IMG/VR virus record: IMGVR_UViG_2859793810_000007 | DNA: 55,029 nt | Reading direction: 5' to 3' (one strand) | Source: a virus | Taxonomy: Duplodnaviria > Heunggongvirae > Uroviricota > Caudoviricetes | Shown: positions 11,573 to 39,529 of the stretch, piece after piece | Position numbering within the stretch: the first letter of the stretch is position 1 | Layout of the letters: every line of letters starts with the position of its first letter | The notes under the pieces: generated by a model | Told to the model about the DNA's origin: nothing | The model's input: the letters and a program-made list of their open reading frames with translations, nothing else | Database searches by the model: none | Position numbers and translations under genes: made by a program

Positions 11573-14500
11573 TACCGGTATGCTCCACTTAACCGGCCAC
11601 CATCACGGGCCTGCTGTTGCATAAAGTCCGCGGCCGCTTTTTTCCCGAGGTCATAAACCACCTTCAGGGCAGCCGGACCTATCTGCCCGTTCGTGCCGTC
11701 GTTATTGATCTCAATGTTGTACTGCGGGGCAAACATCACCATGCCTGAACCACCAGTATCCGCCACAACCCCCAGCTTACCATCAGCACCGCGACGCAGT
11801 GGCAGAATGGCTTCAGGTCCCGCTTCCCCCATCACACCCGCGCCTTTTGCAAAAGCAAAAAACGTCGGACGGTTAACCACCGTGCCACTGTAGCGACTCA
11901 AATCAGCAGACTGGTAAACACCGCCATCAGCATTAGTCGTGAAGCCGAATAAAGAACCGACGCCCTTTACCGCCTGCATCATGGCCATCTGTGCCATAAT
12001 TCTGGCCATATCTGACAACAGGGAAGAGGTGAAGGATTTAAAATTCAGCTTACCGGTGGTACAGAATGTCGCCAGTGCATTACCGGCACTGCTGAATGCC
12101 ACTGTAAACATCTGTTCTGCCGTTCCCGCCGCATTATCCGCATCCGCCGTAAAATTCTGAAACGCCCGCATGGCACCGTTTTTCCAGTCGCCCTGCGCCA
12201 CTTCCAGTTCCTGCCAGTAGCGTTTGTTTTCATTCAGTTGTCGCTTCAGGCTCCCCTTCAGCACCTCCTCAGCCCTCCGGTAGTCCTCCGTCCCGTAAGT
12301 GCCTTTCTGGCGACTGTCATTCTCAAGCTGTTGCAACTGTTGCCGGTATTCCTGCCGGATGCGCAACTGTGCCTGGTAGCGCTGCCGCTGCTTATCCCCC
12401 ATACCTGCAGTGGCAATATCCAGATTGTGCTGCTCACGCAGTGCACGTTCTTTGTCTGCCAGCTGGCTGGTCAGCTGAACCGTTTTTTTTTCTCAGGTCG
12501 TTAAGCGCTGTCTGTTTCTGCAGCTCCTGCTGTTTCACATCCAGCAGCGTCAGCGCCTGAATCAGCTCATTCTTACGGGCCAGCACACTCTTTTCATCTG
12601 CCGTCAGCTTTTTCCCGTCCAGGTCGCTGATGCGCTGCTGCAGGGCCAGAAGCTGTTTATGCGCTTCAGTCATCCTTTCAGTGGCAATGCCTGCTGACTG
12701 TCTGGCAGCAGCAATCTGCCCTTCCACCTGTGCCTGCTGCTGACTGTACTGCAGCAATAACCGGGTGGCCTCATCATTACGGGTTGCCCGTGTATTTTTC
12801 TTAATGGCTTTTTCGTAACGTTCATTTTCACGCTGTATCGCCGCATCCCTGACAGCCTGGTCGGCGTACTGCATGGCATTAATACGCGCAATTTCCCGCT
12901 GATGTCGTGCAGCTTCCGTTTCATTCATCCGGTTCAGCGCGGCATTTTCAGCATTCCGGCGTTTCTGTTGCTCCTGGTAATTCCGTTCTGCCTGCGCTTT
13001 TGCATCCTGCAAATCCTTCCGGCGTTTTTTCTCCTGAAGATCGTTAAGACGCTGCTGATCGTACTCCACCTGTGTGGAGGCGTTTGTCCACGGATATTTT
13101 TTCGCGCGCTGAATTTTTTCCTGTAACGCATCAATCTGCGCATCCAGCGAGTCTTCACGACCAATATTCATGGCCGCATCCCAGAACTGCTTCCACCAGT
13201 CAGACAAGGTTTGCAGCGTACTACCCAGCGCATTGAGATTATTATCAATATCAGATGTGCGTTTACCGGTTTCCTCTGCCAGCGCAGACATGGCGATCCG
13301 GGCCGCATCACTGGACCGCCCCTGCTCCCCAAGGACGCGTATCTGCTCAAGCTGAGTGGCATTCAAAAAATGCAGCGCATTGTCCAGCGCCTTCGCGGCA
13401 TTTACAGGATCATCCTTCAGCCGCTTAAACTGATTTATGGTATCGCTGACCGACTGGCCAACCGATCGCTCCATCTGTGCGGCAGCTTTCGCCACCATAC
13501 CAATATCGTTTCCATGAAATGCCCCACTGCCCACCACCTGTGCCAGCGCACCGGCTGCCGCATGTTGCGTGATACCATTCCCGGATATGGCCCGGCTGAG
13601 TTTCCACAACTGCCCGACAGTGACACCGGCATAATGTCCCGTCAGCGCCAGCTGACGGTTAAATTTCTCGCCCTCCTTCCGGCCGTCATGCCAGGCTTTA
13701 CCCAGACCCAGGACCGCCGCGACAAGTCCGCCAATAACGCCGCCAGTCATCATGCCTTTCGGCGACATCAGTGCGCCTGTCCATCCGGCACGGTTAGCCA
13801 GCGTTATCCCGGATCCCCTCAGCGCACCAAAATTGCCTCGCGCCATCTGACTGATTAACACCCCCAGCTCCCGCCGGGCTGCCGCACTTTTCAGCCCCAG
13901 CGAATGTGTGGCTTTTCCTGCCCGCTCCATTTTGCGGATATACACTTCTGCAGCACTGCTTACCCCCAGCTGAGCCGCCCTGGCGCGAAGCAACTCAGAA
14001 GACGACAGATTCTGGCGGGTTGCCTGCTCTTTAAGCTGGCGGATAAACGCCGCTTTCTGCCGGGTGGCCTGTTCCTCTGCCTGCGTCAGGGCACGGGTTT
14101 TCGCCGTGATCTCCGAAATCAGCGCCAGATAATCCTGCTGACCAACCCCGCCACTGTTTCTGGCCTGTCGGATCTGCTGCTGAATACGCTGTAATTCCTG
14201 AAGCCCCGCACCGGCCTGTTTCACACTGTCAATCTGGCGATAAAAGGCGGCAGCCGCTTTATCCTGCGCCTCCGCCAGTGCCCTGGCCTGCGCCTGTTCC
14301 TCGCGCATTTTCTGATTCAGGGCATCCACGCGCAGACGGGTTTGTTCCACCTCACGGGCCATGCGTTCATGAGCCCGTGCATTCTTCTCCACCGTCTGCG
14401 CATGGGCTGATGCTGCTGTTGCAGCCGAAGAAGCCGCCTGCATTGTCTGCCGGGCCGCCTGAGTCTGACGCTCCATAAAACGCTGCATACGGGCAGAAGA

Positions 14501-19385: not shown

Positions 19386-20891
19386 TCATGGCATGGCCAT
19401 GAGCATTTTCACGTCCGCATCACCGTCTGCTGACGTCTGTGGCACGCCACCCTGTACCGCTGCCGGTGAATGGTTCGCCATGAAATGTTCAAACATGGCG
19501 GTTGTGGATGCAGAAACCGGTTCTGCCCTGCCTGAGGCTGCCGCCAGTACAGCCCGGGCATTCTCCACGGTCATCCCCGGACAGGCCGCCAGTTTTTCAG
19601 CCTGCGCCTCTGCCCCTTTTGCCTCATCCAGGGCCATAATCTGATCACGAAGTGAGGGTCCGGCATTCGCCTGCGGTGAAGCAGCCAGAATCGGACGGGC
19701 TTTTTCCACCGTCATCTCCGGCATCGCCGCCAGCGTTGCCGCCAGTTGTTCACGTCCTTTCGCCTCTTCACATGCCATAATGCGATCGGCTTCACTCTGC
19801 GCAGATACACCAGATTGTTGCGGTGCCGCCACGGCCAGAATCGCCCGGGCCTGCTCAACGCTCATACCCTGTTGCCCTGCCAGCATCGTGGCCAGTTGTT
19901 CACGTCCTTTCGCTTCCTGACACGTCAGGATCCCCATCACTCGCTGGTTCTCCTGCGCGGCAGCCTCCGTTGCAGTTAATTGCGGCATAGTGCCTCCTGT
20001 ATCGTGTGTGTTCAGCGTCGCAGCCATCACGCTGATGGCGTCCGACGCATTGATTAATTCATCCGCCAGTTCGGCCTCAATACCGGACTGACCTTCAAAA
20101 ACGGCGGCCTCTGTTCCCATAACCGCATCCACAGATAAACCGGTATACATCGCCACTTTTTCAGCAAACATCCGGCGCGCCGCATCAATGCGCTGCTGCA
20201 TGTCCTGGCGAACCTTTGCTGGCAGGGATTCAAACTGATTGCCATCCACCTTGTGCGATCCGGCGTAAATCAGCGTGATATCCACACCGGCCTGTGCCAG
20301 ATGACCGGCATAGCTGACATGGCCCATCATCACCCCAATGGAGCCGATACGGGATGTCTGGGTAACCAGCCGTCGGGAGCAGGCCGATGCCAGTAACATG
20401 GCGGCTGAACAGGCCGTGTCATTGCACAGTGCCCAGACAGGCTTCAGCTGCCGGAGACGGTAAATCATGTCAGCGCAGTCAAACGCGCCGGTGGCCTGCC
20501 CGCCAGAACTGTCAATGTCCAGCAGTACGCCCCGTACCTGAGTGTCCGCCATTGCCTGCTGAAGACAGGCGACAATGCCGTCATAGCCAGTCATTCCGGA
20601 AAATGGCCGCATGCCACCCAGCCGGTGTACCAGCGTGCCGGTCACCGGCAGTACAGCAATACCGTTCACCACCCGGTAAACACGGGCAGGTCGTTTGCCT
20701 CCGGCCATGTACTCGTCCGTTTCAGCCAGCATCCCGGGAGCGTCAAGCTGTACCTGCTGTTGCGGTACCGAAAGGCTTGCTGCGCCCATCTCACGCCCGA
20801 GCGCGCAAAAGAAAACCCGCGCATAGGCGGGCTCCAGAAGCAGCGGCTCATTGAATGCCGCAGCGATAATATGTGAAAGATTACGTCTCAC
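19386..20891 (-). CDS. C: prohead protease/scaffold C (with in-frame Nu3)
   Basis: 501 aa; AFNEPLLLEPAYARVFFCAL...GSIGVMMGH... matches lambda gpC (S49-type protease). Confidence 0.85.
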   Translation of the reverse strand: MRRNLSHIIAAAFNEPLLLEPAYARVFFCALGREMGAASLSVPQQQVQLDAPGMLAETDEYMAGGKRPARVYRVVNGIAVLPVTGTLVHRLGGMRPFSGMTGYDGIVACLQQAMADTQVRGVLLDIDSSGGQATGAFDCADMIYRLRQLKPVWALCNDTACSAAMLLASACSRRLVTQTSRIGSIGVMMGHVSYAGHLAQAGVDITLIYAGSHKVDGNQFESLPAKVRQDMQQRIDAARRMFAEKVAMYTGLSVDAVMGTEAAVFEGQSGIEAELADELINASDAISVMAATLNTHDTGGTMPQLTATEAAAQENQRVMGILTCQEAKGREQLATMLAGQQGMSVEQARAILAVAAPQQSGVSAQSEADRIMACEEAKGREQLAATLAAMPEMTVEKARPILAASPQANAGPSLRDQIMALDEAKGAEAQAEKLAACPGMTVENARAVLAAASGRAEPVSASTTAMFEHFMANHSPAAVQGGVPQTSADGDADVKMLMAMP

Positions 20892-22474
20892 GTGATGTTG
20901 TCTCCTCTTCCGGCCTGCGACTCTCCGCTATCTGCTGCTGATACGCCTGGGCTATCCACACCGGACGTGAGAGTCCGGCTTTTTCGCGCTCTGCGGATTC
21001 CCTGACCTGCTGGCGGAAAATGTCCTGATAATCTTCGCCCATCAGTGCCAGTTCTTTCTCATACGTGCTCAGTCCGGCCTCAATGCGCATCACCGATTCC
21101 TGGACCTCCTTGAGCCCGTCAATGGCCATTCTTCCGGAGCTAATCCACTCTGCCCGTGACCAGGCTGAACGCGCCTGGTAAAAATCAAAACGCGCCCGTG
21201 GCGGACGAATAATCCCCCGAAGAAGCGCCTCTTCCAGCCAGCAGGAAAACATCTGCGTGGCCAGCCGGGCCGCAATAAATTTTCGCCGCCCCATAAAATA
21301 GCGCCACGACTCATTGGCGGAGGCGCGGGCACTTGAGTAACTGACCTTCGAGTAATCACGGGACAACTGTTCGTAGGAAACGCCAAGACCGGCTGCAATA
21401 TACCGCAGCAGCGCCTGTTCAAGCGCCGAAAATCCATTGTCTGAATCCTGCGCTGTCTGCAGGTTCAGCGCATCGCCAGGAAAAAAGGTGCGGAATTTTA
21501 ACACCGCCCAGCGTCACGTTATTCGTGTCATACCAGCGGGTGAACTTCTCCAGAATATTAATAAGCGGATTATCCTGCTGACCTTGCGGTGCCCCCGCGA
21601 TATATTCAAATGCCTTTTCGGTATCAAGTTCACTTTCGATTGTGGCTGCATACATCGCCTTCACAATGGCCGACTGAAGCTGCGTGGCCTGCAGGGAGTC
21701 CAGCATCTTCATCCGCTCCATTACGCTGTAAAACTGATTAGCCCCACGGGTCTGCCCGTCCTCCACCGGCTCAAAAATATGCAGCATGGCCGGACGCCCG
21801 GTGGGAAGCTCACGCGGGATCCGCTCCCAGCGTCCGGCACCAGAGAACGGAAAATCATCCTCACAGATATGGTACGCAATCGCCCGCCCATACCGATCGA
21901 CCTCAACCCCGGCCCGCAGAAAGTGGTTCCCCATACCGTGTCCTGGCGTGTCCACCCGTTTCGGACTCACGGCTTTAAAACGCGTACGGAATAACTGCGT
22001 GGTTTCCGTATCCCAGACCGGCTGCACAAAGATTTCGCCGTTAAAGGCATGCACGCCCACCCCTTCACGGATAAATTCCGTAAACGTGCGTTTCCCTTCC
22101 ACGTCGATCTCGCCAAACATTCCTTCTGCGTATTCCGACCAGGCTGCTTCCACCTCCCCGACAAAACTTTTTGCCGTGGTCTCCCGCATCCCCAGCCAAC
22201 GCCAGTTCAGACGGTAGCTGATAAGAAACATGTGCCCGACGATATGATCCTTATGCAGGGCCACCGCATTAGCCGCGATACCGTTATTGCGCACCAGATC
22301 ATCTGCCCGGGCATTCCCCAGACGCAATGCAGGCAACAGGGCCGCATCGGCACTCTGCGCCGGTGGTAACCACTCTGCCATTTGCCCGCCAAATCCTGCG
22401 CCGCCTCCGTTGTAGCTGAGACTCTCACGAAGCGGAACGCCGTTCACATCAATCAGGACAGGCGTTCGTTTCAT
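20881..22474 (-). pseudogene. B: portal protein B, split by a frameshift
   Basis: 351-aa and 207-aa ORFs both match lambda gpB; junction GGVKIPHLF / PGDALNLQTAQD falls on the T6 run (plus-strand A6, 21481-21486). Confidence 0.8.
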
Positions 22475-22674: not shown

Positions 22675-24585
22675 TCACTCCTCCGGACAGCTTCGCTGCC
22701 AGTTCTTCAAGGGTCGGTTGTGCAGTTGCATCCTTGCGGGATGCAACTGCACAGCCAGATCAAGTTGCCAGCGTTGCACGGACACACGTAATGCCGCATA
22801 GGCATACACCAGGCAGTCCAGCGCTTCGTTACGCCGCTTTTTGTTATCCCACAACAGACGCATCTTTCCTTTTTCCCACTTTTCCACCAGTTCCTCCGCC
22901 ACCAGTTGTTGTGCCTCTGTCTGCGAAAAAATCTCCGGATTATCAGGAAAGCGGATGGCATACGATGTGGCCTCATTCACAGGGGTGGGATCGGCCTTCA
23001 TTCGGGCATAGAGAATTTCTTTTGCGGTATCCGTCCCCACCTCACACAGATACACACCCCGCTGATTGCGGGTTTTCGGCATGGTGATCACCGGCTTGCC
23101 ATAGACAGAGGCACCTTTTACCGGCAGTACCCGGAAAATACCGTGTTTTTTTGACCTCTGATACACGATTTCGCCATCGATCCCCCCGATATCCCAGCAG
23201 ACACGGGAAATGGTCATTTCGGTACCGTCTGCATGGCGGTATTTTTTATTGATCGCCGCATCCACACGTAACAGCGTCTCTTCCTCATCAGGACGTCCCA
23301 TGATGATGATTTTATCCACCAGAAAGGCTTCCTCTCCCGGAGCCCACCCCCAGACATACATCTCAAAACGGTTTCGCTGCGAGTCAATGCCCGCCGTCAG
23401 ATAAACCACCCGGACAGGCACCGTTGCCGTGTAAGGCACAACCTTATCCATCAGTACCTGGTGATCGAGTTTTTCGCCCACGGCCTCTTCCCAGGTCTCG
23501 CCCAGCGTGGTGTTCACAAAAGTTTTCACGCCGTTGGGATCTTTCAGTGCATCCAGCCAGTCACAGACTATCTGTACCCTGGTGGTGAACGGACTGTACG
23601 CCGTCCATATATGGAAAGTGATGGAGCGCGGCGGCGGAATTTCATTACCCGAAGCACTGAAAAACGTCAGACCGTCACACGTCCACATCCCGGTATTGTC
23701 ACAAATCCAGCGCCCCCCGGTCTGATCAAGTTCAGACTGACGGATCACGCAGCCATTATGTTCACACAGGTAATACACCGTTTCCGGTTTACCCTTCTCC
23801 CATTTCAGGCCAAACGACGTCGCATCATCGCCAAACTTCAGATACTGCTCCTCCCCGCAATGAGGGCAAGGGACATAAAACCGCATGAAATGCGCAGATT
23901 CATTCGCAGCTTTTTCAATCTGACAGGAGCCTTTAATTTTTGGCGTTGAACCGCGTATGGATTTTGGCCATACCGAACCTTCAATACGTTTATCGCCAAG
24001 CAGTGTTGGCGAACCTTCTTTTTCCACATCCGGTTCAAACGAGGAGAGTTCGTCATAGCAGACCACATCGACAGATTTTTCACGGTAGTTTTTGGCAGCA
24101 GCACCACCCAAACACCAGAACCCCACACCAGAGGAAAAACGCTTCAGTGTGAGCGTATTATCCCGGTGTTTCCGGCCCAGCCAGGGAGAAAGTTTTTTCA
24201 GGCAAGGAACATCACGAATTGTTGCTTCCACGTGAGACTTCATAAAATCTTCAGCAGCTGAGTCCGTCGGCTGAAAAAGAAGAGTGTTGCGGGATTTGTG
24301 CTCAATAAAATACCCGATCACACCAAGCACCATTTTTGTATAACCAACACGGGCAGATTTAATCAGGTTAACTGTACGAATCTCGTCATTGCCCATGCAG
24401 TTCATGATGGCGACCTGAAACTGCAGCGTTTTCCATTCCCCCTCACCGTATGACGATTCTTTAGGCAGGTAATAATTTTGATCGGCCCATTCTACAGCCG
24501 TCACCGGCAATACCCTGACCAGTGGCTGCAGTGCGATAGTGACTGCCACCATCATATTACTCAGTTGTTGTTCTGATATATTCAT
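22675..24585 (-). CDS. A: terminase large subunit A
   Basis: MNISEQQLSN... and long collinear match to lambda gpA; ATG at 24583-24585. Confidence 0.9.
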   Translation of the reverse strand: MNISEQQLSNMMVAVTIALQPLVRVLPVTAVEWADQNYYLPKESSYGEGEWKTLQFQVAIMNCMGNDEIRTVNLIKSARVGYTKMVLGVIGYFIEHKSRNTLLFQPTDSAAEDFMKSHVEATIRDVPCLKKLSPWLGRKHRDNTLTLKRFSSGVGFWCLGGAAAKNYREKSVDVVCYDELSSFEPDVEKEGSPTLLGDKRIEGSVWPKSIRGSTPKIKGSCQIEKAANESAHFMRFYVPCPHCGEEQYLKFGDDATSFGLKWEKGKPETVYYLCEHNGCVIRQSELDQTGGRWICDNTGMWTCDGLTFFSASGNEIPPPRSITFHIWTAYSPFTTRVQIVCDWLDALKDPNGVKTFVNTTLGETWEEAVGEKLDHQVLMDKVVPYTATVPVRVVYLTAGIDSQRNRFEMYVWGWAPGEEAFLVDKIIIMGRPDEEETLLRVDAAINKKYRHADGTEMTISRVCWDIGGIDGEIVYQRSKKHGIFRVLPVKGASVYGKPVITMPKTRNQRGVYLCEVGTDTAKEILYARMKADPTPVNEATSYAIRFPDNPEIFSQTEAQQLVAEELVEKWEKGKMRLLWDNKKRRNEALDCLVYAYAALRVSVQRWQLDLAVQLHPARMQLHNRPLKNWQRSCPEE

Positions 24586-24864
24586 CGAGTAAATCCGGTA
24601 ATTTATCCCCCGCACGCGCGCACTGATTCGCTCCCTTAGCAATAAGGATTTTCAGATGATCAATATGACGCGGCGTTAAATCCGGGAACTGTCGTTGCAT
24701 GGACAAAGGAATGGAGTCAAGCGTACTGGATAAAGCCATCGCCAGCTTACTAAGGGCAAAAATACAAAATCCGGTATCGATAAGATTTCCTTTTGACACC
24801 TGATTTTTTAACTGCTGTGCGACAGCCTGTTCTGCGGTCAGTTCCCATCTGGCAATGAGTAGTT
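24557..24864 (-). pseudogene. Nu1: terminase small subunit Nu1, 3-prime fragment (5-prime part replaced by IS600)
   Basis: ...TGFCIFALSKLAMALSSTLDSIPLSMQRQFPDLTPRHIDHLK... matches the C-terminal half of lambda Nu1; ORF runs into the IS600 end. Confidence 0.75.
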
Positions 24865-24907
24865 TGAGGTGTACTGGCAATAGCGGACACTACCATTTGT
24901 TCTTTTT

Positions 24908-25726
24908 TTAAGCAGCCATCTGATGATATTTTTCCCTGAAGGCTGCCGGGGAGATATTCCCCAGACGAGAGTGACGACGCTGACGATTGTAGAAAATCTC
25001 AATGTATTCCCGTATTACTGAGATGGCTTCATCCCGGTTATTAAAACGATAGTGGCTCAGGCTCTCATTTTTCAGCGTTCCCCAGAAGCTTTCCATCGGA
25101 GCATTGTCGTAACAGTTACCTTTACGCGACATTGATGTTTTCAGACCAGACTGCTCCTGTATGACCCGGTAATCGTATGCGCAGTACTGTGAACCTCGAT
25201 CAGAGTGGTGGATTAGCCCGGCAGGTGGGCGCTGGCTCCTGAGCGCCATAAACAGGGCTTTACCTGTCAGCTCTTTTGTCATGCGCTCTCCCATGGCGTA
25301 GCCGACAATTTCACACGTATAAACATCTTTGATGCCAGCGAGGTACAACCATCCCTCCTGTGTGGCAACATACGTCAGGTCCGCCACCCAGACCTGATTT
25401 GGTGCTGTAGGAGCGAACGTCTGGTTCAGCAGATTTGGCGCAACTGGCAGATTGTGGTTCGGGTTCGTAGTCGCTCTGAACTTGCGTTTCTGCTTACAGC
25501 GTAGCCTTAGCTCCTTACGAAGACGTGCCAGTCGGTCACGACCAACGATGATGCCATTCTCTGCCAGCTCCGTCTGGAGCCGCCGGGTTCCATATGTTTC
25601 GCGAGTGCGGATATGTGCCACCTTAATCTCCGGTTTTAGCCGCTCATCACTTTGTTTTCTGTCTGAGGGTTCATGCTGTACCCAGTTGTAATAACCGCTC
25701 CTGGATACACCAAATACCTGACACAT
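24908..25726 (-). CDS. IS600 transposase OrfB (DDE integrase domain)
   Basis: 272 aa; ...HSDRGSQYCAYDY... IS3-family catalytic region. Confidence 0.9.
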   Translation of the reverse strand: MCQVFGVSRSGYYNWVQHEPSDRKQSDERLKPEIKVAHIRTRETYGTRRLQTELAENGIIVGRDRLARLRKELRLRCKQKRKFRATTNPNHNLPVAPNLLNQTFAPTAPNQVWVADLTYVATQEGWLYLAGIKDVYTCEIVGYAMGERMTKELTGKALFMALRSQRPPAGLIHHSDRGSQYCAYDYRVIQEQSGLKTSMSRKGNCYDNAPMESFWGTLKNESLSHYRFNNRDEAISVIREYIEIFYNRQRRHSRLGNISPAAFREKYHQMAA

Positions 25727-25761
25727 CGCTTCAATGGGAAATTGTTGTCGCCATTGTTCGA

Positions 25762-26064
25762 TTAACGCGTATTTTTCAGCGACTCCTGTGCAAAATACGC
25801 TGTTGCTTTTTTTAATATATCTCGCTCAAGGCGAGCTTCATTTAACGCCTTACGCAGTTGCAGAATTTCAGATTCCAGTTCAGCCAGCGTGCGGGAACCA
25901 GGAGTACCGAGCCCTTTTCTGGCGGCGGTAACCCATTGTCCTAAAGTGCCTTCAGGAAGAGATAATCGGGAAGCGCCTTCACTGATCGAAAGTTGATTTT
26001 CAAGAACCGTTCTGACAGCTTCGGCTTTGAACTCTTTAGAGTAACGTTGGGTTTTTCTGCTCAT
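25762..26064 (-). CDS. IS600 OrfA (HTH/leucine-zipper)
   Basis: 100 aa MSRKTQRYSKEFKAEAVRTVLENQ...; A AAA AAA slippery motif near its 3-prime end for OrfAB fusion. Confidence 0.9.
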   Translation of the reverse strand: MSRKTQRYSKEFKAEAVRTVLENQLSISEGASRLSLPEGTLGQWVTAARKGLGTPGSRTLAELESEILQLRKALNEARLERDILKKATAYFAQESLKNTR

Positions 26065-26128
26065 TATTAGCTCCTTCTGATGCCATTCTATTTCAGGAAG
26101 GAGTGTCCGTTAAACTCAGGCTACCTCA

Positions 26129-26530
26129 CCCGTCCCGGATACCGAGAACGTTTCGTCCAGCAACTGGAGAGAGTTCGACGGTGGCATCATTGCCCATGCC
26201 GGAGGCGCTGGAGGTTTCGGCTGAGGATGGCACAGGGCATTTTCCTTTGACGAGCACCCGACCACCATTATCAAGCTTGCGCCGAAGAGCATCATTTTCA
26301 GCTTTCGCATCAGCTAACTCCTTCGTGTATTTAGCATCGAGTGCATCAGCATCACGCTGGCGCTGCTGCATGTCAGTAATGGTTGCGTTCGCCAGCTTCA
26401 GTTCTCCGGCGTTTTTGTCGCGCTGCTCTTTGTAGGTAATGGCGTTATCACGGTAATGATTAACAGCCCATGACAGGCAGACGATGATGCAGATAACCAG
26501 AGCGGAGATAATCGCGGTGACTCTGCTCAT
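26129..26530 (-). pseudogene. Rz: i-spanin Rz, 3-prime truncated by IS600 (Rz1 o-spanin embedded at 26129-26310, also truncated)
   Basis: [34 protein letters not shown]... like lambda Rz; +1-frame [24 protein letters not shown]...PPAPPAW is Rz1-like (lipobox, Pro-rich); both read into the IS. Confidence 0.7.
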
Positions 26531-27060
26531 TGATCTATCCCCCAACAGGCTAATGCGCTTTCCTGGTCACGACGAATAACCTGTCCATAGCAGTTATTTG
26601 AACGTATGCGGCAATCGCGCCCAACATCTTTTATCCACCAGCGAATCGCCTCGCATGCGCCCTTACGATCACCGGCATTCAGCCGCTTATAAAACGTCGA
26701 CGGGAAACACTTACCGGGGCCAATGTTATAGGGGCAAAATGACGCTATACCCGCTTTCTGGGGTTCGGTCAGAGGTACTTTAATATTGCGCTCCACCCAT
26801 GCCAGCGCCTTATCACGTTCAATAGCGTTAACCTGGTCACATTTTTCCTTCGACAGCTTCATTCCCGGTATGACAGGCTTACCATCCACCATTGTGGCAC
26901 CACGACAGATGGTCCATATGCCAGAACCATCACGGTATGCCGTTGTGTGATTACCCTCTTTTTCGTTCAGAAACTGGTCAAGTATCTGGGGAGCAGACGC
27001 GCCTGCGGCAATCAGCGCCAGAACAGCAGCCGACAGGCCGTATTTGATTTTTGCGCTCAT
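26527..27060 (-). CDS. R: SAR endolysin (T4-lysozyme-like muramidase with N-terminal signal-anchor-release domain)
   Basis: 177 aa; N-terminal Gly/Ala-rich weakly hydrophobic segment [18 protein letters not shown]...D...T catalytic pattern like phage 21 R. Confidence 0.85.
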
Positions 27061-27758: not shown

Positions 27759-27974
27759 TTACTCTCCCCGTGCAGCCTTACGCTTGTCTTCTCTTATTTT
27801 GAAATACAGATTCGTCAGATAAGTCAGAAGCCCCAGAAGCAGACTTCCCAGCACACCAATCGCAGCCCACTGTGATGGCCTGACCTGATCCAACCACTGC
27901 AAAAACCAGTAGCCGGCACTGCCGGCGGAGGTGCCGTAGGCAATGCCCGTTGAAATTTTGTCCATGGATTTCAT
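27759..27974 (-). CDS. S: S21-type pinholin with dual start motif
   Basis: 71 aa [30 protein letters not shown]... near-identical in pattern to phage 21 S; Met1-Lys-Ser-Met4 dual start. Confidence 0.85.
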
Positions 27975-28266: not shown

Positions 28267-28341
<75 letters not shown>

Positions 28342-28344
28342 ATA

Positions 28345-28420
<76 letters not shown>

Positions 28421-28422
28421 GC

Positions 28423-28499
28423 TGGCCCACCACCGAGGACTCGAACCTCGCACCGTCAACTTAGAAGGTTGATGCTCTATCCGGATGAGCTAGTGGTGG
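28423..28499 (-). tRNA. tRNA-Arg (anticodon UCU)
   Basis: rc CCACCACTAGCTC...TCAACCTTCTAAGTTGA...GGTGGTGGGCCA; anticodon loop CUUCUAA. Confidence 0.75.
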
Positions 28500-28500
28500 T

Positions 28501-28577
28501 TGGTGGCCCTTGCTGGACTTGAACCAGCGACCTGGCGATTATGAGTCGCTCGCTCTGACCAACTGAGCTAAAGGGCC
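28501..28577 (-). tRNA. tRNA-Ile2-like (anticodon CAU; could be Met)
   Basis: rc GGCCCTTTAGCTCAGTTGGTCAGAGCGAGCGACTCATAATCGC...; close to E. coli ileX-type sequence. Confidence 0.75.
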
Positions 28578-31965: not shown

Positions 31966-32057
31966 CGCTGTCACCTCAGAATGTCTGAAGTGGCACACTG
32001 AATTTGGCCACCTGAACAGAGGTGATATGCTCACCTCAGAACAACACAGGTGCTCCA

Positions 32058-33226
<1,169 letters not shown>

Positions 33227-33234
33227 CCACTTCA

Positions 33235-33944
33235 TTGCGCAGTTCTTCACTTGCTGAGGAAAAAACAAGCGTTCCATCCTTCTCGACATACCCATCCGTT
33301 TCAAGCAGACCACACAGCATGCCTATACGCGTTGATTTATTTGCGGAAAAAAACACACGAGGGATGAATTTGTTTTTTGCTGTGCACCCCATTAGTCCAT
33401 AACCTCGCAGGGTCTCCATGAGTGGATTTACCTGACCACGCGCCGTTGATATCAGCCAGTCCTTACCATCTCCAGAGAAGTTGTAATCAGGCAGTTCAGC
33501 CTTCATACGCTCGATCATGTATGGCTCGACGTTTGAAAACTTCACGCTCCCATTGCTAAGACTACCATCCCCGAGAAGGGAGCCGATAACCCATGCTAAT
33601 GGCTCTGAGTGGTCGCCAAAGTCACCAGTTATTTCAGGAATCCTAACGCCATTTTTGTGCCTCTTCGTTTCACTCAACCGCTTCAACCCGAAGGTATCTA
33701 TCACGCGGCGTTTCTCGCCTTTCGTGAATCCACGACTAGTGACCTCCCATAGGTGATCGCCTGCGCAATCAACATAACGACCATCTTCAAATGTGACTCG
33801 GTAAACATCTCTAACACCCTGCGGGAATATCCCAGTGACAGTTGACGGATTGCCGTCTACTGACGCCACCTGATCGCCAATTTTTACATTCCCGTGAGTA
33901 GTCCATGTCCCATCAGCTAAAAGAATAGGCTCATTCAGTGGGCA
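33235..33944 (-). other. intein remnant (Hint N-terminal block plus LAGLIDADG homing-endonuclease motifs), C-terminal splicing region missing
   Basis: block A-like CPLNEPILLADGT (compare CFAKGTNVLMADGS of a yeast VMA intein); LAGLIDADG-type motifs AWVIGSLLGDGSL (33558-33596) and IGMLCGLLETDGYV (33285-33326). Confidence 0.65.
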
Positions 33945-35060
33945 TGCCTTTCCGTGACCGTGCACACCATTGACCAGCGTCAACTCTGCCTCACGGAACT
34001 GGAATTTATCTGCCAGAGATTCCCACGGTGGATTAAACAGATACTGCTGCTTGCCGTAGAAAGCGTTGATAGTGTCCTGGTAAAACTCTCGCGCACTGTA
34101 GAGTTCTTCAGGATCGAAGTAGGATGCCGTGCCGATGTACTGCCAGATTTCATCCTCGGTAACACCGTTCATCAGGCATTCGTTGATGTCTTTGTACGGC
34201 AGAGTAACAAGACGGCAACGATGTTCACCGAGTCGGCTTACGATTTCCCTTGCGGCTTCACGACCAACATCATCAACGTCCATCGAGATGAATATTTCCT
34301 CAAACCTGTCGAGGTTGTGATACTCAAACTCAATCCACTGTTGCTTAGCGCCTTTCCCGCCACCAAACGGCACGGATAACGCCGAGATGCCGTATTGCGC
34401 ATAGCTCATACAATCAATTTCGCCTTCGCAAAGCACAACCACCCTCACGCCAGCGTCCAGAGCCTGCCATCCGAACAGGCAAGGTTCGCAATCACCTTCT
34501 GCCATAATGACTTTCTTCCCGTCCGGGCGCTCAGTGCTGATTCGCTTGACCTGCAACAACTCACCATCGCGTTTGTACGGAAGCACCAGAGCATCCAGTT
34601 CTCGTTCTCCATTCCACACCTTGCCGCTGACAACCTCGTAGCGCTTTACGACTTCTGGCGATATGCCACGCGATTGCAGGTACTCAAGATGGGATTCTGT
34701 TCTGGTAACGTAGCGGGCGATTTTCTTACGATCAGGTCTGGAGAATTTCTTCTCACGTCTGGCATCGAAATGGTGATCGTCATCCTTGATACCGAGAAAT
34801 GCTTTCGCTTCCTGCATAGCCTGATGCAGGTTAATTCCACGACATGCCATCCACAAATCAAGCATGTCACCGCCGTCTCCCTCAGCGAAATCAGCCCATT
34901 TTTTCTTGCCGATAAGGTTGACCTTAAGGCTGTTTCCCTTGTCACCGTTGACGTTACCGGCAACCCACTCATGCCCCTCTATCTTGCCGTTTGGCAACAG
35001 GTGCGGAGCCACCCTGTCAACCTGCGCCCAAAGCAGGTCGCTAAGTTCACTTGGCCTCAT
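33235..35060 (-). pseudogene. T7 gp4-like primase-helicase interrupted by an intein and 3-prime truncated by IS911
   Basis: TOPRIM motifs VVLCEGEIDCMS and ISMDVDDVG (34251-34448); P-loop-like NGVHGHGKA (33945-33968) immediately followed by Cys-initiated intein; ORF runs into IS911 right end. Confidence 0.7.
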
Positions 35061-35335
35061 GATTCCCTCAGATTGAGATTTTTAAACCAGAAATCGACAA
35101 ACGAAATACTTAACCAGCCGTGGTTATAACCAGCGACCAGTAGCGATTTGATTTTTGATTTCATGGTTCACCTGTCGAAAAACACATAGCCAGTTTTCGA
35201 TACGGTGATTGCGGATGATGGTCTGGATTGTGGTTGAATGGTTTCTGGCTTCTCGTCGTTCCAGCGCTGACTGAGGTAGCCTGAGTTTAACGGACACTCC
35301 TTCCTGAAATAGAATGGCATCAGAAGGAGCTAATA

Positions 35336-35638
35336 ATGAGCAGAAAAACCCAACGTTACTCTAAAGAGTTCAAAGCCGAAGCTGTCAGAACGGTTCTTGA
35401 AAATCAACTTTCGATCAGTGAAGGCGCTTCCCGATTATCCCTTCCTGAAGGCACTTTAGGACAATGGGTTACCGCCGCCAGAAAAGGGCTCGGTACTCCT
35501 GGTTCCCGCACGGTGGCTGAACTGGAATCTGAAATTCTGCAACTGCGTAAGGCGTTAAATGAAGCTCGCCTTGAGCGCGATATATTAAAAAAAGCAACAG
35601 CGTATTTTGCACAGGAGTCGCTGAAAAATACGCGTTAA
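35336..35638 (+). CDS. IS600 OrfA
   Basis: 100 aa, identical family to copy 1; slippery A AAA AAA at 35587-35593. Confidence 0.9.
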   Translation: MSRKTQRYSKEFKAEAVRTVLENQLSISEGASRLSLPEGTLGQWVTAARKGLGTPGSRTVAELESEILQLRKALNEARLERDILKKATAYFAQESLKNTR

Positions 35639-35673
35639 TCGAACAATGGCGACAACAATTTCCCATTGAAGCG

Positions 35674-36465
35674 ATGTGTCAGGTATTTGGTGTATCCAGG
35701 AGCGGTTATTACAACTGGGTACAGCATGAACCCTCAGACAGAAAACAAAGTGATGAGCGGCTAAAACTGGAGATTAAGGTGGCACATATCCGCACTCGCG
35801 AAACATATGGAACCCGGCGGCTCCAGACGGAGCTGGCAGAGAATGGCATCATCGTTGGTCGTGACCGACTGGCACGTCTTCGTAAGGAGCTGAGGCTACG
35901 CTGTAAGCAGAAACGCAAGTTCAGAGCGACTACGAACCCGAACCACAATCTGCCAGTTGCGCCAAATCTGCTGAACCAGACGTTCGCTCCTACAGCACCA
36001 AATCAGGTCTGGGTGGCGGACCTGACGTATGTTGCTGGCATCAAAGATGTTTATACGTGCGAAATTGTCGGCTACGCCATGGGAGAGCGCATGACAAAAG
36101 AGCTGACAGGTAAAGCCCTGTTTATGGCGCTCAGGAGCCAGCGCCCACCTGCCGGGCTAATCCACCACTCTGATCGAGGTTCACAGTACTGCGCATACGA
36201 TTACCGGGTCATACAGGAGCAGTCTGGTCTGAAAACATCAATGTCGCGTAAAGGTAACTGTTACGACAACGCTCCGATGGAAAGCTTCTGGGGAACGCTG
36301 AAAAATGAGAGCCTGAGCCACTATCGTTTTAATAACCGGGATGAAGCCATCTCAGTAATACGGGAATACATTGAGATTTTCTACAATCGTCAGCGTCGTC
36401 ACTCTCGTCTGGGGAATATCTCCCCGGCAGCCTTCAGGGAAAAATATCATCAGATGGCTGCTTAA
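35674..36465 (+). CDS. IS600 OrfB, 9-aa deletion variant
   Basis: 263 aa versus 272 aa in the other copies. Confidence 0.85.
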   Translation: MCQVFGVSRSGYYNWVQHEPSDRKQSDERLKLEIKVAHIRTRETYGTRRLQTELAENGIIVGRDRLARLRKELRLRCKQKRKFRATTNPNHNLPVAPNLLNQTFAPTAPNQVWVADLTYVAGIKDVYTCEIVGYAMGERMTKELTGKALFMALRSQRPPAGLIHHSDRGSQYCAYDYRVIQEQSGLKTSMSRKGNCYDNAPMESFWGTLKNESLSHYRFNNRDEAISVIREYIEIFYNRQRRHSRLGNISPAAFREKYHQMAA

Positions 36466-36508
36466 AAAAAGAACAAATGGTAGTGTCCGCTATTGCCAGT
36501 ACACCTCA

Positions 36509-36598
36509 CTGATCCAACCACTGCAAAAACCAGTAGCCGGCACTGCCGGCGGAGGTGCCGTAGGCAATGCCTGTTGATATTTTTTCCATCTGATACAT
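36509..36598 (-). pseudogene. pinholin 5-prime fragment (second lambdoid lysis region, truncated by IS600)
   Basis: [30 protein letters not shown] then IS600 end; N-terminus differs from the intact holin at 27759-27974, so not a simple duplicate. Confidence 0.6.
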
Positions 36599-37277: not shown

Positions 37278-37352
<75 letters not shown>

Positions 37353-37355
37353 ATA

Positions 37356-37430
<75 letters not shown>

Positions 37431-37432
37431 GC

Positions 37433-37509
37433 TGGCCCACCACCGAGGACTCGAACCTCGCACCGTCAACTTAGAAGGTTGATGCTCTATCCGGATGAGC
37501 TAGTGGTGG
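37433..37509 (-). tRNA. tRNA-Arg (UCU), second copy
   Basis: identical to 28423-28499. Confidence 0.7.
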
Positions 37510-37510
37510 T

Positions 37511-37587
37511 TGGTGGCCCTTGCTGGACTTGAACCAGCGACCTGGCGATTATGAGTCGCTCGCTCTGACCAACTGAGCTAAAGGGCC
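37511..37587 (-). tRNA. tRNA-Ile2-like (CAU), second copy
   Basis: identical to 28501-28577. Confidence 0.7.
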
Positions 37588-38199: not shown

Positions 38200-38291
38200 A
38201 TTCCCCGTCTTACCGCCACTGAAGTGGCACACTGAATTTGGCCACCTGAACAGAGGTGATATGCTCACCTCAGAACAACACAGGTGCTCCA

Positions 38292-39460
<1,169 letters not shown>

Positions 39461-39529
39461 CCACTTCAAAGAATTAAAGCAACCTATTGTGACAGGCAGC
39501 GATAACAGTAAATCACAGGAAGCATAATC

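Follow-up and report, generated by a model that had tools for sequence, protein, structure and literature searches.

Why does a lambdoid prophage carry an insertion sequence (IS) at the very point where its packaging site would be expected, and how did the element come to lie there? The question is raised by a 55,029-nucleotide stretch of viral DNA (IMG/VR record IMGVR_UViG_2859793810_000007; hereafter the window), in which IS600 separates the spanin gene Rz from the small terminase gene Nu1 in an ipaH-carrying, lambda/phage 21-type prophage of Shigella flexneri. A reading made from the letters of the window alone (the sequence-only reading) had proposed that this element, IS600 copy 1, replaces the cos site and the N-terminus of Nu1, clips Rz and its companion Rz1, and leaves a prophage that cannot be packaged. 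Comparison with intact relatives and sister strains supports and refines this reading, and indicates that the junction is very probably the scar of a two-step, IS600-driven decay, in which Nu1 was disrupted before cos was lost.

A complete IS600 joins truncated spanin genes to a Nu1 remnant

The element between Rz and Nu1 is, as the sequence-only reading had it, a complete IS600 of 1264 bp (24865-26128, minus strand). Its full-length identity to annotated E. coli copies is 99.5-99.7%, its ends were read directly from the sequence, and the matching copies carry the annotation "IS3-like element IS600 family transposase". Since this is a near-identical, full-length match rather than a statistical pattern, chance is not at issue. 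The terminal inverted repeats are imperfect and start with TGAGGT (TGAGGTGTACTGGCAATAGCGGACACT versus TGAGGTAGCCTGAGTTTAACGGACACT); the orfA-side repeat (TGAGGTAGCC...) terminates at 26128, where it adjoins Rz, and the orfB-side repeat (TGAGGTGTAC...) terminates at 24865, where it adjoins Nu1. Both reading frames are present on the minus strand: orfA (25762-26064, 100 aa; Pfam HTH_Tnp_1, E = 8.5e-21) and orfB (24908-25726, 272 aa), with a DDE integrase-type catalytic domain (Pfam rve, rve_3, rve_2 and HTH_21). An A7G slippery run at 25806-25813, close to the 3' end of orfA, is a putative -1 frameshift site, and homologous IS600 copies are annotated with a "programmed frameshift". A search for an outward promoter from the IS600 end toward the Nu1 remnant returned only the promoter-like site of the IS itself, with counts at the level of shuffled sequence.

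The 3-bp target duplication sought at the two ends is absent: the flanking triplets, GTT (24862-24864) and CCC (26129-26131), differ, as had been noted, and so are not the identical flanks of a simple insertion. IS600 did produce such duplications in S. flexneri strain 8401, with GTC on both sides of one copy in rha and AAC on both sides of another in Nu1. Copy 1 lacks a duplication because one of its original flanks has since been deleted; the missing duplication is therefore a property of this insertion event that marks a later deletion, and not a trait of the element.

On the orfA side, Rz (i-spanin) starts at the ATG at 26530 and ends after codon 134 of 155 (Rz', 26129-26530, minus strand), as seen in the list of open reading frames (ORFs), in a tblastn match to residues 1-134 and in comparison with intact Rz. 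Its stop codon, TGA (26126-26128), is supplied by the IS600 terminus, and the truncated product matches positions 1-104 of 126 in Pfam Phage_lysis. Rz1, the o-spanin lipoprotein encoded in the +1 frame within Rz (Rz1', 26116-26310, minus strand), was delimited by comparing its translation with that of an intact relative, and matches positions 1-40 of 41 in Pfam Rz1. It consists of 60-61 of the 67 native codons followed by 3-4 codons and a stop from IS600, the last 6-7 codons being lost. Both genes are thus clipped in the manner claimed, with the spanin architecture and the lipobox (VVGC) kept and 21 C-terminal residues of Rz missing. The base at the junction itself, 26129 (C on the plus strand, G on the minus strand), matches neither the IS end nor intact Rz. 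Three intact Rz genes (in the loci L024, L033 and L001) have an A, not the base of the window, at the equivalent position, and L024 is 100% identical to the window across the 989 bp preceding it.

On the orfB side, IS600 adjoins codons 68-169 of the 169 codons of Nu1 (Nu1', 24560-24864, minus strand; stop codon at 24557-24559), which are 99% identical by tblastn to the intact homologue in enteroinvasive E. coli (EIEC). A program-made ORF, 24557-24880, lengthens this remnant to a TTG within the IS600 end. The sequence-only reading was right that IS600 is fused to a C-terminal piece of Nu1, but the piece is more than the half it described, as about 60% of the protein remains; the interval it had marked, 24557-26530, runs exactly from the stop codon of the remnant to the start codon of Rz. 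The matches of Nu1' are confined to positions 85-163 of 164 in Pfam Phage_Nu1 (E = 5.6e-19) and to positions 87-189 of 199 in phrog_57, whereas the intact homologue spans positions 12-189 of the latter. Judged by these profile matches, the C-terminal assembly and gpA-interaction region of the small terminase family appears to be present, and Nu1' is a gene fragment, not a functional member of that family.

Nu1 residues 1-67, which lie at the position of the N-terminal winged-helix region, are absent from the window by tblastn. Phage 21 gp1 spans positions 11-189 of phrog_57, and its own residues 1-67 match PDB 1J9I (E = 5e-20), the solved DNA-binding domain of lambda gpNu1. Because of the phrog_57 register and this match, the lost 67 residues would occupy the position of the winged-helix DNA-binding domain, in line with the claim that the DNA-recognition domain of the terminase is gone. 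Direct comparison of intact Nu1 with solved structures gave only noise (E > 0.5), and a Pfam scan of its N-terminal 70 residues at permissive thresholds gave nothing meaningful. An N-terminus that is matched neither by the N-terminal half of Pfam Phage_Nu1 nor by 1J9I suggests a divergent specificity domain.

The missing segment contains the probable cos region

The best intact relative is the prophage of EIEC strain CFSAN029787, which is 96-99% identical to the window on both sides of the lesion and has 2541 bp between the two breakpoints. These comprise the 3' end of Rz, a ParD/ParE pair, a KilA-N gene, small ORFs, the cos region and Nu1 codons 1-67. The cargo between Rz and cos varies among the other intact relatives, so that 2541 bp is not the true size of the deletion. 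In this phage group 1.9-2.9 kb of such variable cargo separates Rz from cos, and the strict contiguity of Rz, cos and Nu1 assumed in the sequence-only reading does not hold.

In S. flexneri 5b strain 8401 (CP000266.1; L033, with L022 the same locus with shorter flanks), 3217 bp lie between the breakpoints, made up of about 1.95 kb of phage DNA and a second, inverted IS600, which sits in a Rha-like gene and has its own GTC duplication. Gone from the window are the final 21 codons of Rz and the final 6-7 of Rz1, along with the Rha-like cargo gene, three small ORFs, the entire cos site (a cosN-like nicking site and repeated R-like elements) and Nu1 codons 1-67. By this comparison the window has lost about 1.95 kb of phage DNA, plus the second IS600 if one was there. 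Both intervals bear out an IS-associated deletion between Rz and Nu1. BLAST and tblastn searches found no trace of the missing segment or of the Nu1 N-terminus elsewhere in the 55-kb window, nor was an intact Nu1 5' region or cos found there.

Upstream of Nu1, the EIEC and 8401 loci contain a region that aligns to the annotated cosN and cosB of phage 21 and includes a 24-nt block identical to phage 21 cos (TTTCACTATTTATGAAAATTTTTC). The segment missing from the window is the one that so aligns, in agreement with the claim that cos was removed. The cosN-like core of these relatives is GGGCGGGAGCGG, as against GGGCGGCGACCT in phage 21; repeats of the form AAACCGGACATG occupy the position of the R sites of cosB in the EIEC and 8401 loci, and in L033 the R-like elements are commoner than in any shuffle. 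The phage records mEp460_4F5 and Tritos terminate within a few bases of the cosN-like core, which fits a real genome end there. The exact lambda cosN is absent from the intact relative, which uses the variant core instead.

Within the window, neither the conserved 20-mer, the cosN-like 18-mer nor the R-like 12-mer found a match, even with mismatches allowed. The sole one-mismatch match to lambda cosN, at 53645-53656, is at chance level, so the search of the window for cosN- or cosB-like sequence returned none beyond chance.

As a side observation, the terminase group seen at L001 (5484-5714) and L033 (7007-7237) has this variant core together with its own R-like repeat. The variant core, the R-like repeat and a Nu1 N-terminus that Pfam does not recognise suggest a packaging specificity distinct from those of lambda and phage 21.

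Sister strains suggest an insertion in Nu1 before the loss of cos

A look-up of public assemblies for the exact Nu1 hybrid ORF supplied the comparators, which fall into two kinds of locus. The first kind is that of the window: both 40-nt junction strings are identical in all eight of the S. flexneri-type genomes checked, of which at least four bear the name S. flexneri and most are complete chromosomes. Among the look-up accessions, G1663 (2a), AR-0425 (2a), AUSMDU00008332 (2a) and 1205 (4c) are S. flexneri according to the literature. The index lists the truncated Rz protein for 311 collection blocks and the Nu1 hybrid ORF for 362. Among 5,426 complete E. coli genomes none has either junction, and the junctions could therefore serve as lineage markers. 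IS600 copies near the lysis genes of Shiga toxin-producing E. coli (H40, H45) were considered as instances of the same event, and proved to be unrelated insertions at other sites.

The second kind of locus was found in strain 8401 and three further, NCTC-style assemblies, in which the IS600/Nu1 junction and the orientation of the element are as in the window. The 8401-type loci keep Nu1 codons 1-67 and a phage-21-like cos upstream of IS600. L022, L023 and L025 read ...GAAGAGAAAC / IS600 / AACTACTC..., with a perfect AAC duplication, and the uninterrupted target in L001 is GAAGAGAAACTACTC. Comparison with these four loci shows that the GTT at 24862-24864 (AAC on the minus strand) is the one copy of the target duplication that the window has kept. 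From IS600 to the portal gene, L022-L025 share 99.67-99.76% identity with the window over 5.4 kb, together with a portal frameshift. The identical junction and orientation, the near-identity over 5.4 kb and the common frameshift support one ancestral insertion. The sister strains, with their simple, AAC-flanked insertion in Nu1, run counter to the proposal that IS600 replaced cos in one go, and they imply that Nu1 was disrupted before cos was lost.

A different deletion, anchored at the same end of the element as in the window, is found in L024, where Rz is complete and the 5' portion of rha runs into TGAGG and then into the IS600 of Nu1. The TGAGG at this junction (1436-1460) corresponds to five bases of the neighbouring inverted IS600. 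With this separate deletion, the cos segment has been lost at least twice.

Two nested elements were also seen among the sister loci. In L035 (6177-7607) one IS600 is nested within another at position 167, and in 8401-type strains (L033, 7624-8932) a 1.3-kb IS with ends TGAACCGCCCCGGG... splits the Nu1 IS600 at positions 181-184.

A probable two-step history and its alternatives

In the first step, IS600 entered Nu1 at codon 67/68 with duplication of AAC, splitting the N-terminal DNA-binding domain from the C-terminal part. At the level of sequence, this step is demonstrated by the comparison with the sister strains. In the second step, all DNA from the orfA-side end of the Nu1 IS600 to Rz codon 134 was lost. 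The outcome of this step is seen in the window, whereas its mechanism is one that we infer: either an intramolecular, transposase-mediated adjacent deletion would have started from the orfA-side IS600 end, or homologous recombination would have occurred with a further, directly oriented IS600 inserted in Rz. A single-nucleotide mosaic of ten IS600 copies yielded only 13 informative sites, with scrambled patterns that are consistent with gene conversion, and neither these patterns nor the flanks favour one mechanism over the other.

Several points weigh against this account. The 8401-type locus is not the literal ancestor, as its IS600 is split by a 1.3-kb IS that is absent from the window copy, and the order of events therefore rests on parsimony. 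The base at 26129 is left unexplained by both deletion mechanisms. The cos function of the missing sequence is assigned by homology, as is the DNA-binding role of this particular Nu1 N-terminus, which has no direct match to Pfam or 1J9I. The loss of packaging is likewise something that we infer, and defective lambdoid prophages of E. coli O157 can still be mobilised when they interact with other prophages (PMC2669165). Finally, the search for the segment covered 55 kb of the source genome, and its relocation to a distant site through an IS-mediated rearrangement is possible.

Such a relocation would have come about by recombination among IS600 copies, which inverted or translocated the segment from the Rz 3' end through cos to the Nu1 5' end to another part of the chromosome, where cos would persist. 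None of the three IS600 copies in the window has a target duplication, as is typical of recombination between IS copies; an IS600-mediated inversion has been reported in strain 8401 (PMC1550401); and the DNA upstream of a DnaC-like gene differs between S. flexneri strains. No part of the segment is present in the window, however, and neither copy 2 nor copy 3 has flanks reciprocal to GTT and CCC, so that we regard relocation as improbable. Even if it had occurred, cos would no longer lie in cis between Rz and Nu1, and the conclusion on packaging would be unchanged.

A single step, in which one transposition of IS600 deleted the flanking DNA and the Nu1 junction of 8401-type loci arose by an independent insertion at a preferred target, would fit the nested IS that those loci carry and the window copy lacks, and IS elements can indeed have preferred target sites. 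The base-identical junction, the same orientation, the 99.7% identity over 5.4 kb and the common portal frameshift nevertheless point to descent from one insertion, which makes two independent events very improbable. A false Rz-IS600-Nu1 junction produced by a repeat-induced misjoin is conceivable for an element that is highly repetitive in Shigella and liable to be collapsed when short reads are assembled, but it is extremely unlikely when both 40-nt junctions are identical in eight of eight independent genomes and the junction-specific proteins occur in more than 300 collection blocks.

After the knockout of Nu1, a chromosomal cos would stay cuttable by the terminase of a related resident or superinfecting phage, and Nu1' retains the part that should contact the large subunit, through which it could act as a decoy. 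The sole support for either idea is the pair of independent cos-segment deletions from the same IS600 end, one into Rz (window type) and one of the L024 type. That the loss was selected rather than neutral, or that the C-terminal fragment of Nu1 acts as a decoy against related phages, seems to us decidedly doubtful.

Consequences for packaging and further lesions of the prophage

Phages of the lambda type need cos in cis for terminase binding, nicking and packaging, and the N-terminal domain of Nu1 anchors the enzyme at cosB. Without cos in cis and without the cosB-binding domain, the prophage DNA would not be recognised, cut or packaged by its own cos-type terminase. Its rescue would require recombination with a relative that still has cos.

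The affected genes belong to a late operon on the minus strand, which comprises holin S (27759-27974), a 209-aa ORF, lysozyme R, Rz, IS600, Nu1', the large terminase, W, the portal, and head and tail genes. Lysozyme R (26527-27060, minus strand) is intact and matches its EIEC homologue at all 177 aa. The large terminase gene, of the gpA type (22675-24585, minus strand; Pfam GpA_ATPase and GpA_nuclease), has a lesion at about 22743-22748, where three substitutions and a 1-nt deletion replace the last ~28 residues relative to the intact L033 and L001 genes; tblastn splits the gene at residues 612/615, and the lesion is not present in strain 8401.

The portal gene (20884-22474, minus strand) is frameshifted near 21482-21501, and tblastn returns it as two overlapping segments in different frames. 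The same frameshift occurs in sister strains that still carry cos, where the alignment between window and sister has no gap, and a 351-aa portal fragment is called at every S. flexneri locus, among them L033 and L035; by this alignment the frameshift in the portal dates back to the common ancestor. Comparison with the intact EIEC prophage shows further frameshifts in the tail fibre gene (3933-3939), J (7095-7104) and the tape measure gene H (12485-12489). Collinearity with the intact relative breaks off at an IS911 immediately beyond the DnaC-like gene, which means that the immunity and integration regions of the prophage are not in place and the early region is missing. The packaging defect is thus over-determined: the portal, TerL, H, J and tail fibre genes are frameshifted, the early region is gone and Nu1 was already interrupted. 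In functional terms, the loss of cos changed nothing decisive.

Down to the base pair, the lesion between Rz and Nu1 nonetheless accounts in part for the confinement of this ipaH-carrying prophage to the S. flexneri chromosome. A type III effector gene carried in this way is passed on vertically rather than spread by phage. The simple Nu1 insertion, the deletion to Rz seen in the window and the deletion to the neighbouring IS600 are possible markers of S. flexneri lineages, and the locus illustrates cleanly how a prophage decays step by step through IS activity.

Surroundings of the locus in the window

Two further IS600 copies lie in the window, at 35272-36508 (inverted, with a 25-bp internal deletion) and at 47988-49251, neither with a target duplication. 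With no duplication at any of the three copies, all of them underwent secondary rearrangements. An inversion signature was sought among the three by reciprocal matching of their flanks, and no triplet matched. A 1250-bp IS with 99% identity to an annotated IS911 is present in two direct copies, at 31985-33234 and 38219-39468; the DNA on the far side of the first differs among S. flexneri strains (L027 and L030 versus L026 and L034).

At the tail-fibre end of the prophage, 1060-2823 (plus strand) encodes a 587-aa IpaH-type effector with LRR_TTSS and NEL E3 ligase domains, whose N-terminal part differs from that of the frameshifted ipaH which EIEC CFSAN029787 has at this site. A four-tRNA cluster (Gly-Thr-Arg and a tRNA with a CAT anticodon) is duplicated, at 28267-28577 and 37278-37587. 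The second cluster adjoins a 30-codon holin fragment (36509-36598) that is cut by IS600 copy 3 and is the remnant of another lambdoid prophage. A 619-aa ORF with a Toprim domain (33201-35060, minus strand) has weak Hint and LAGLIDADG matches under the Pfam cut-offs, and is possibly a primase that contains an intein.

A reverse transcriptase of the group II intron type (RVT_1 and GIIM) occurs in some S. flexneri strains but not in the window. In L005 (6377-7798) its gene is flanked by Q and the holin gene of the prophage, and in L007 (2445-3968) it lies upstream, beside IS fragments before the DnaC-like gene.

Comparison with known systems

The kind of event described here is already known: it is ordinary prophage decay, involving no new mechanism or system, at a locus that has been public for two decades. 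The prophages of S. flexneri have been described as cryptic and IS-riddled (PMC5596473); a literature search for this specific lesion did not find it, and returned only general statements on cryptic, IS-rich S. flexneri prophages.

The element itself resembles the IS600 of Shigella, a member of the IS3 family, in its 1264 bp, its TGAGGT... repeats, its orfA/orfB organisation, its A7G run and its HTH_Tnp_1 and rve domains, and the window copy differs in having no duplication. The order Rz ... cos - Nu1 - A - W - portal of the lambda/phage 21 packaging module is kept in the intact relatives, with a TerL of the GpA_ATPase and GpA_nuclease type and a Nu1 that belongs to phrog_57 together with phage 21 gp1; the window differs in lacking cos and Nu1 residues 1-67. 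The intact relatives in turn differ from phage 21 in the cos core, GGGCGGGAGCGG rather than GGGCGGCGACCT, and their divergent Nu1 N-terminus suggests another cosB specificity.

The Stx prophage of S. dysenteriae type 1 is defective, IS600-associated and lineage-fixed, and has no lytic cycle (PMC7819885). It is thus, like the window prophage, an IS600-associated lambdoid prophage with a virulence gene that is fixed in a Shigella lineage. The cargo is stx in the former and ipaH in the latter, and the S. dysenteriae element is a 13.5-kb remnant with few structural genes, whereas the window prophage keeps nearly all of its late genes, several of them frameshifted. IS insertions, deletions and frameshifts have likewise inactivated the defective lambdoid prophages of E. 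coli O157 Sakai, as well as DLP12, Rac and Qin, the "grounded" prophages of K-12, all with their cargo retained (PMC2669165; PMC6379469). Several of the defective Sakai prophages are still packaged with help, whereas the cos-less prophage of the window would need recombination with a cos-bearing relative.

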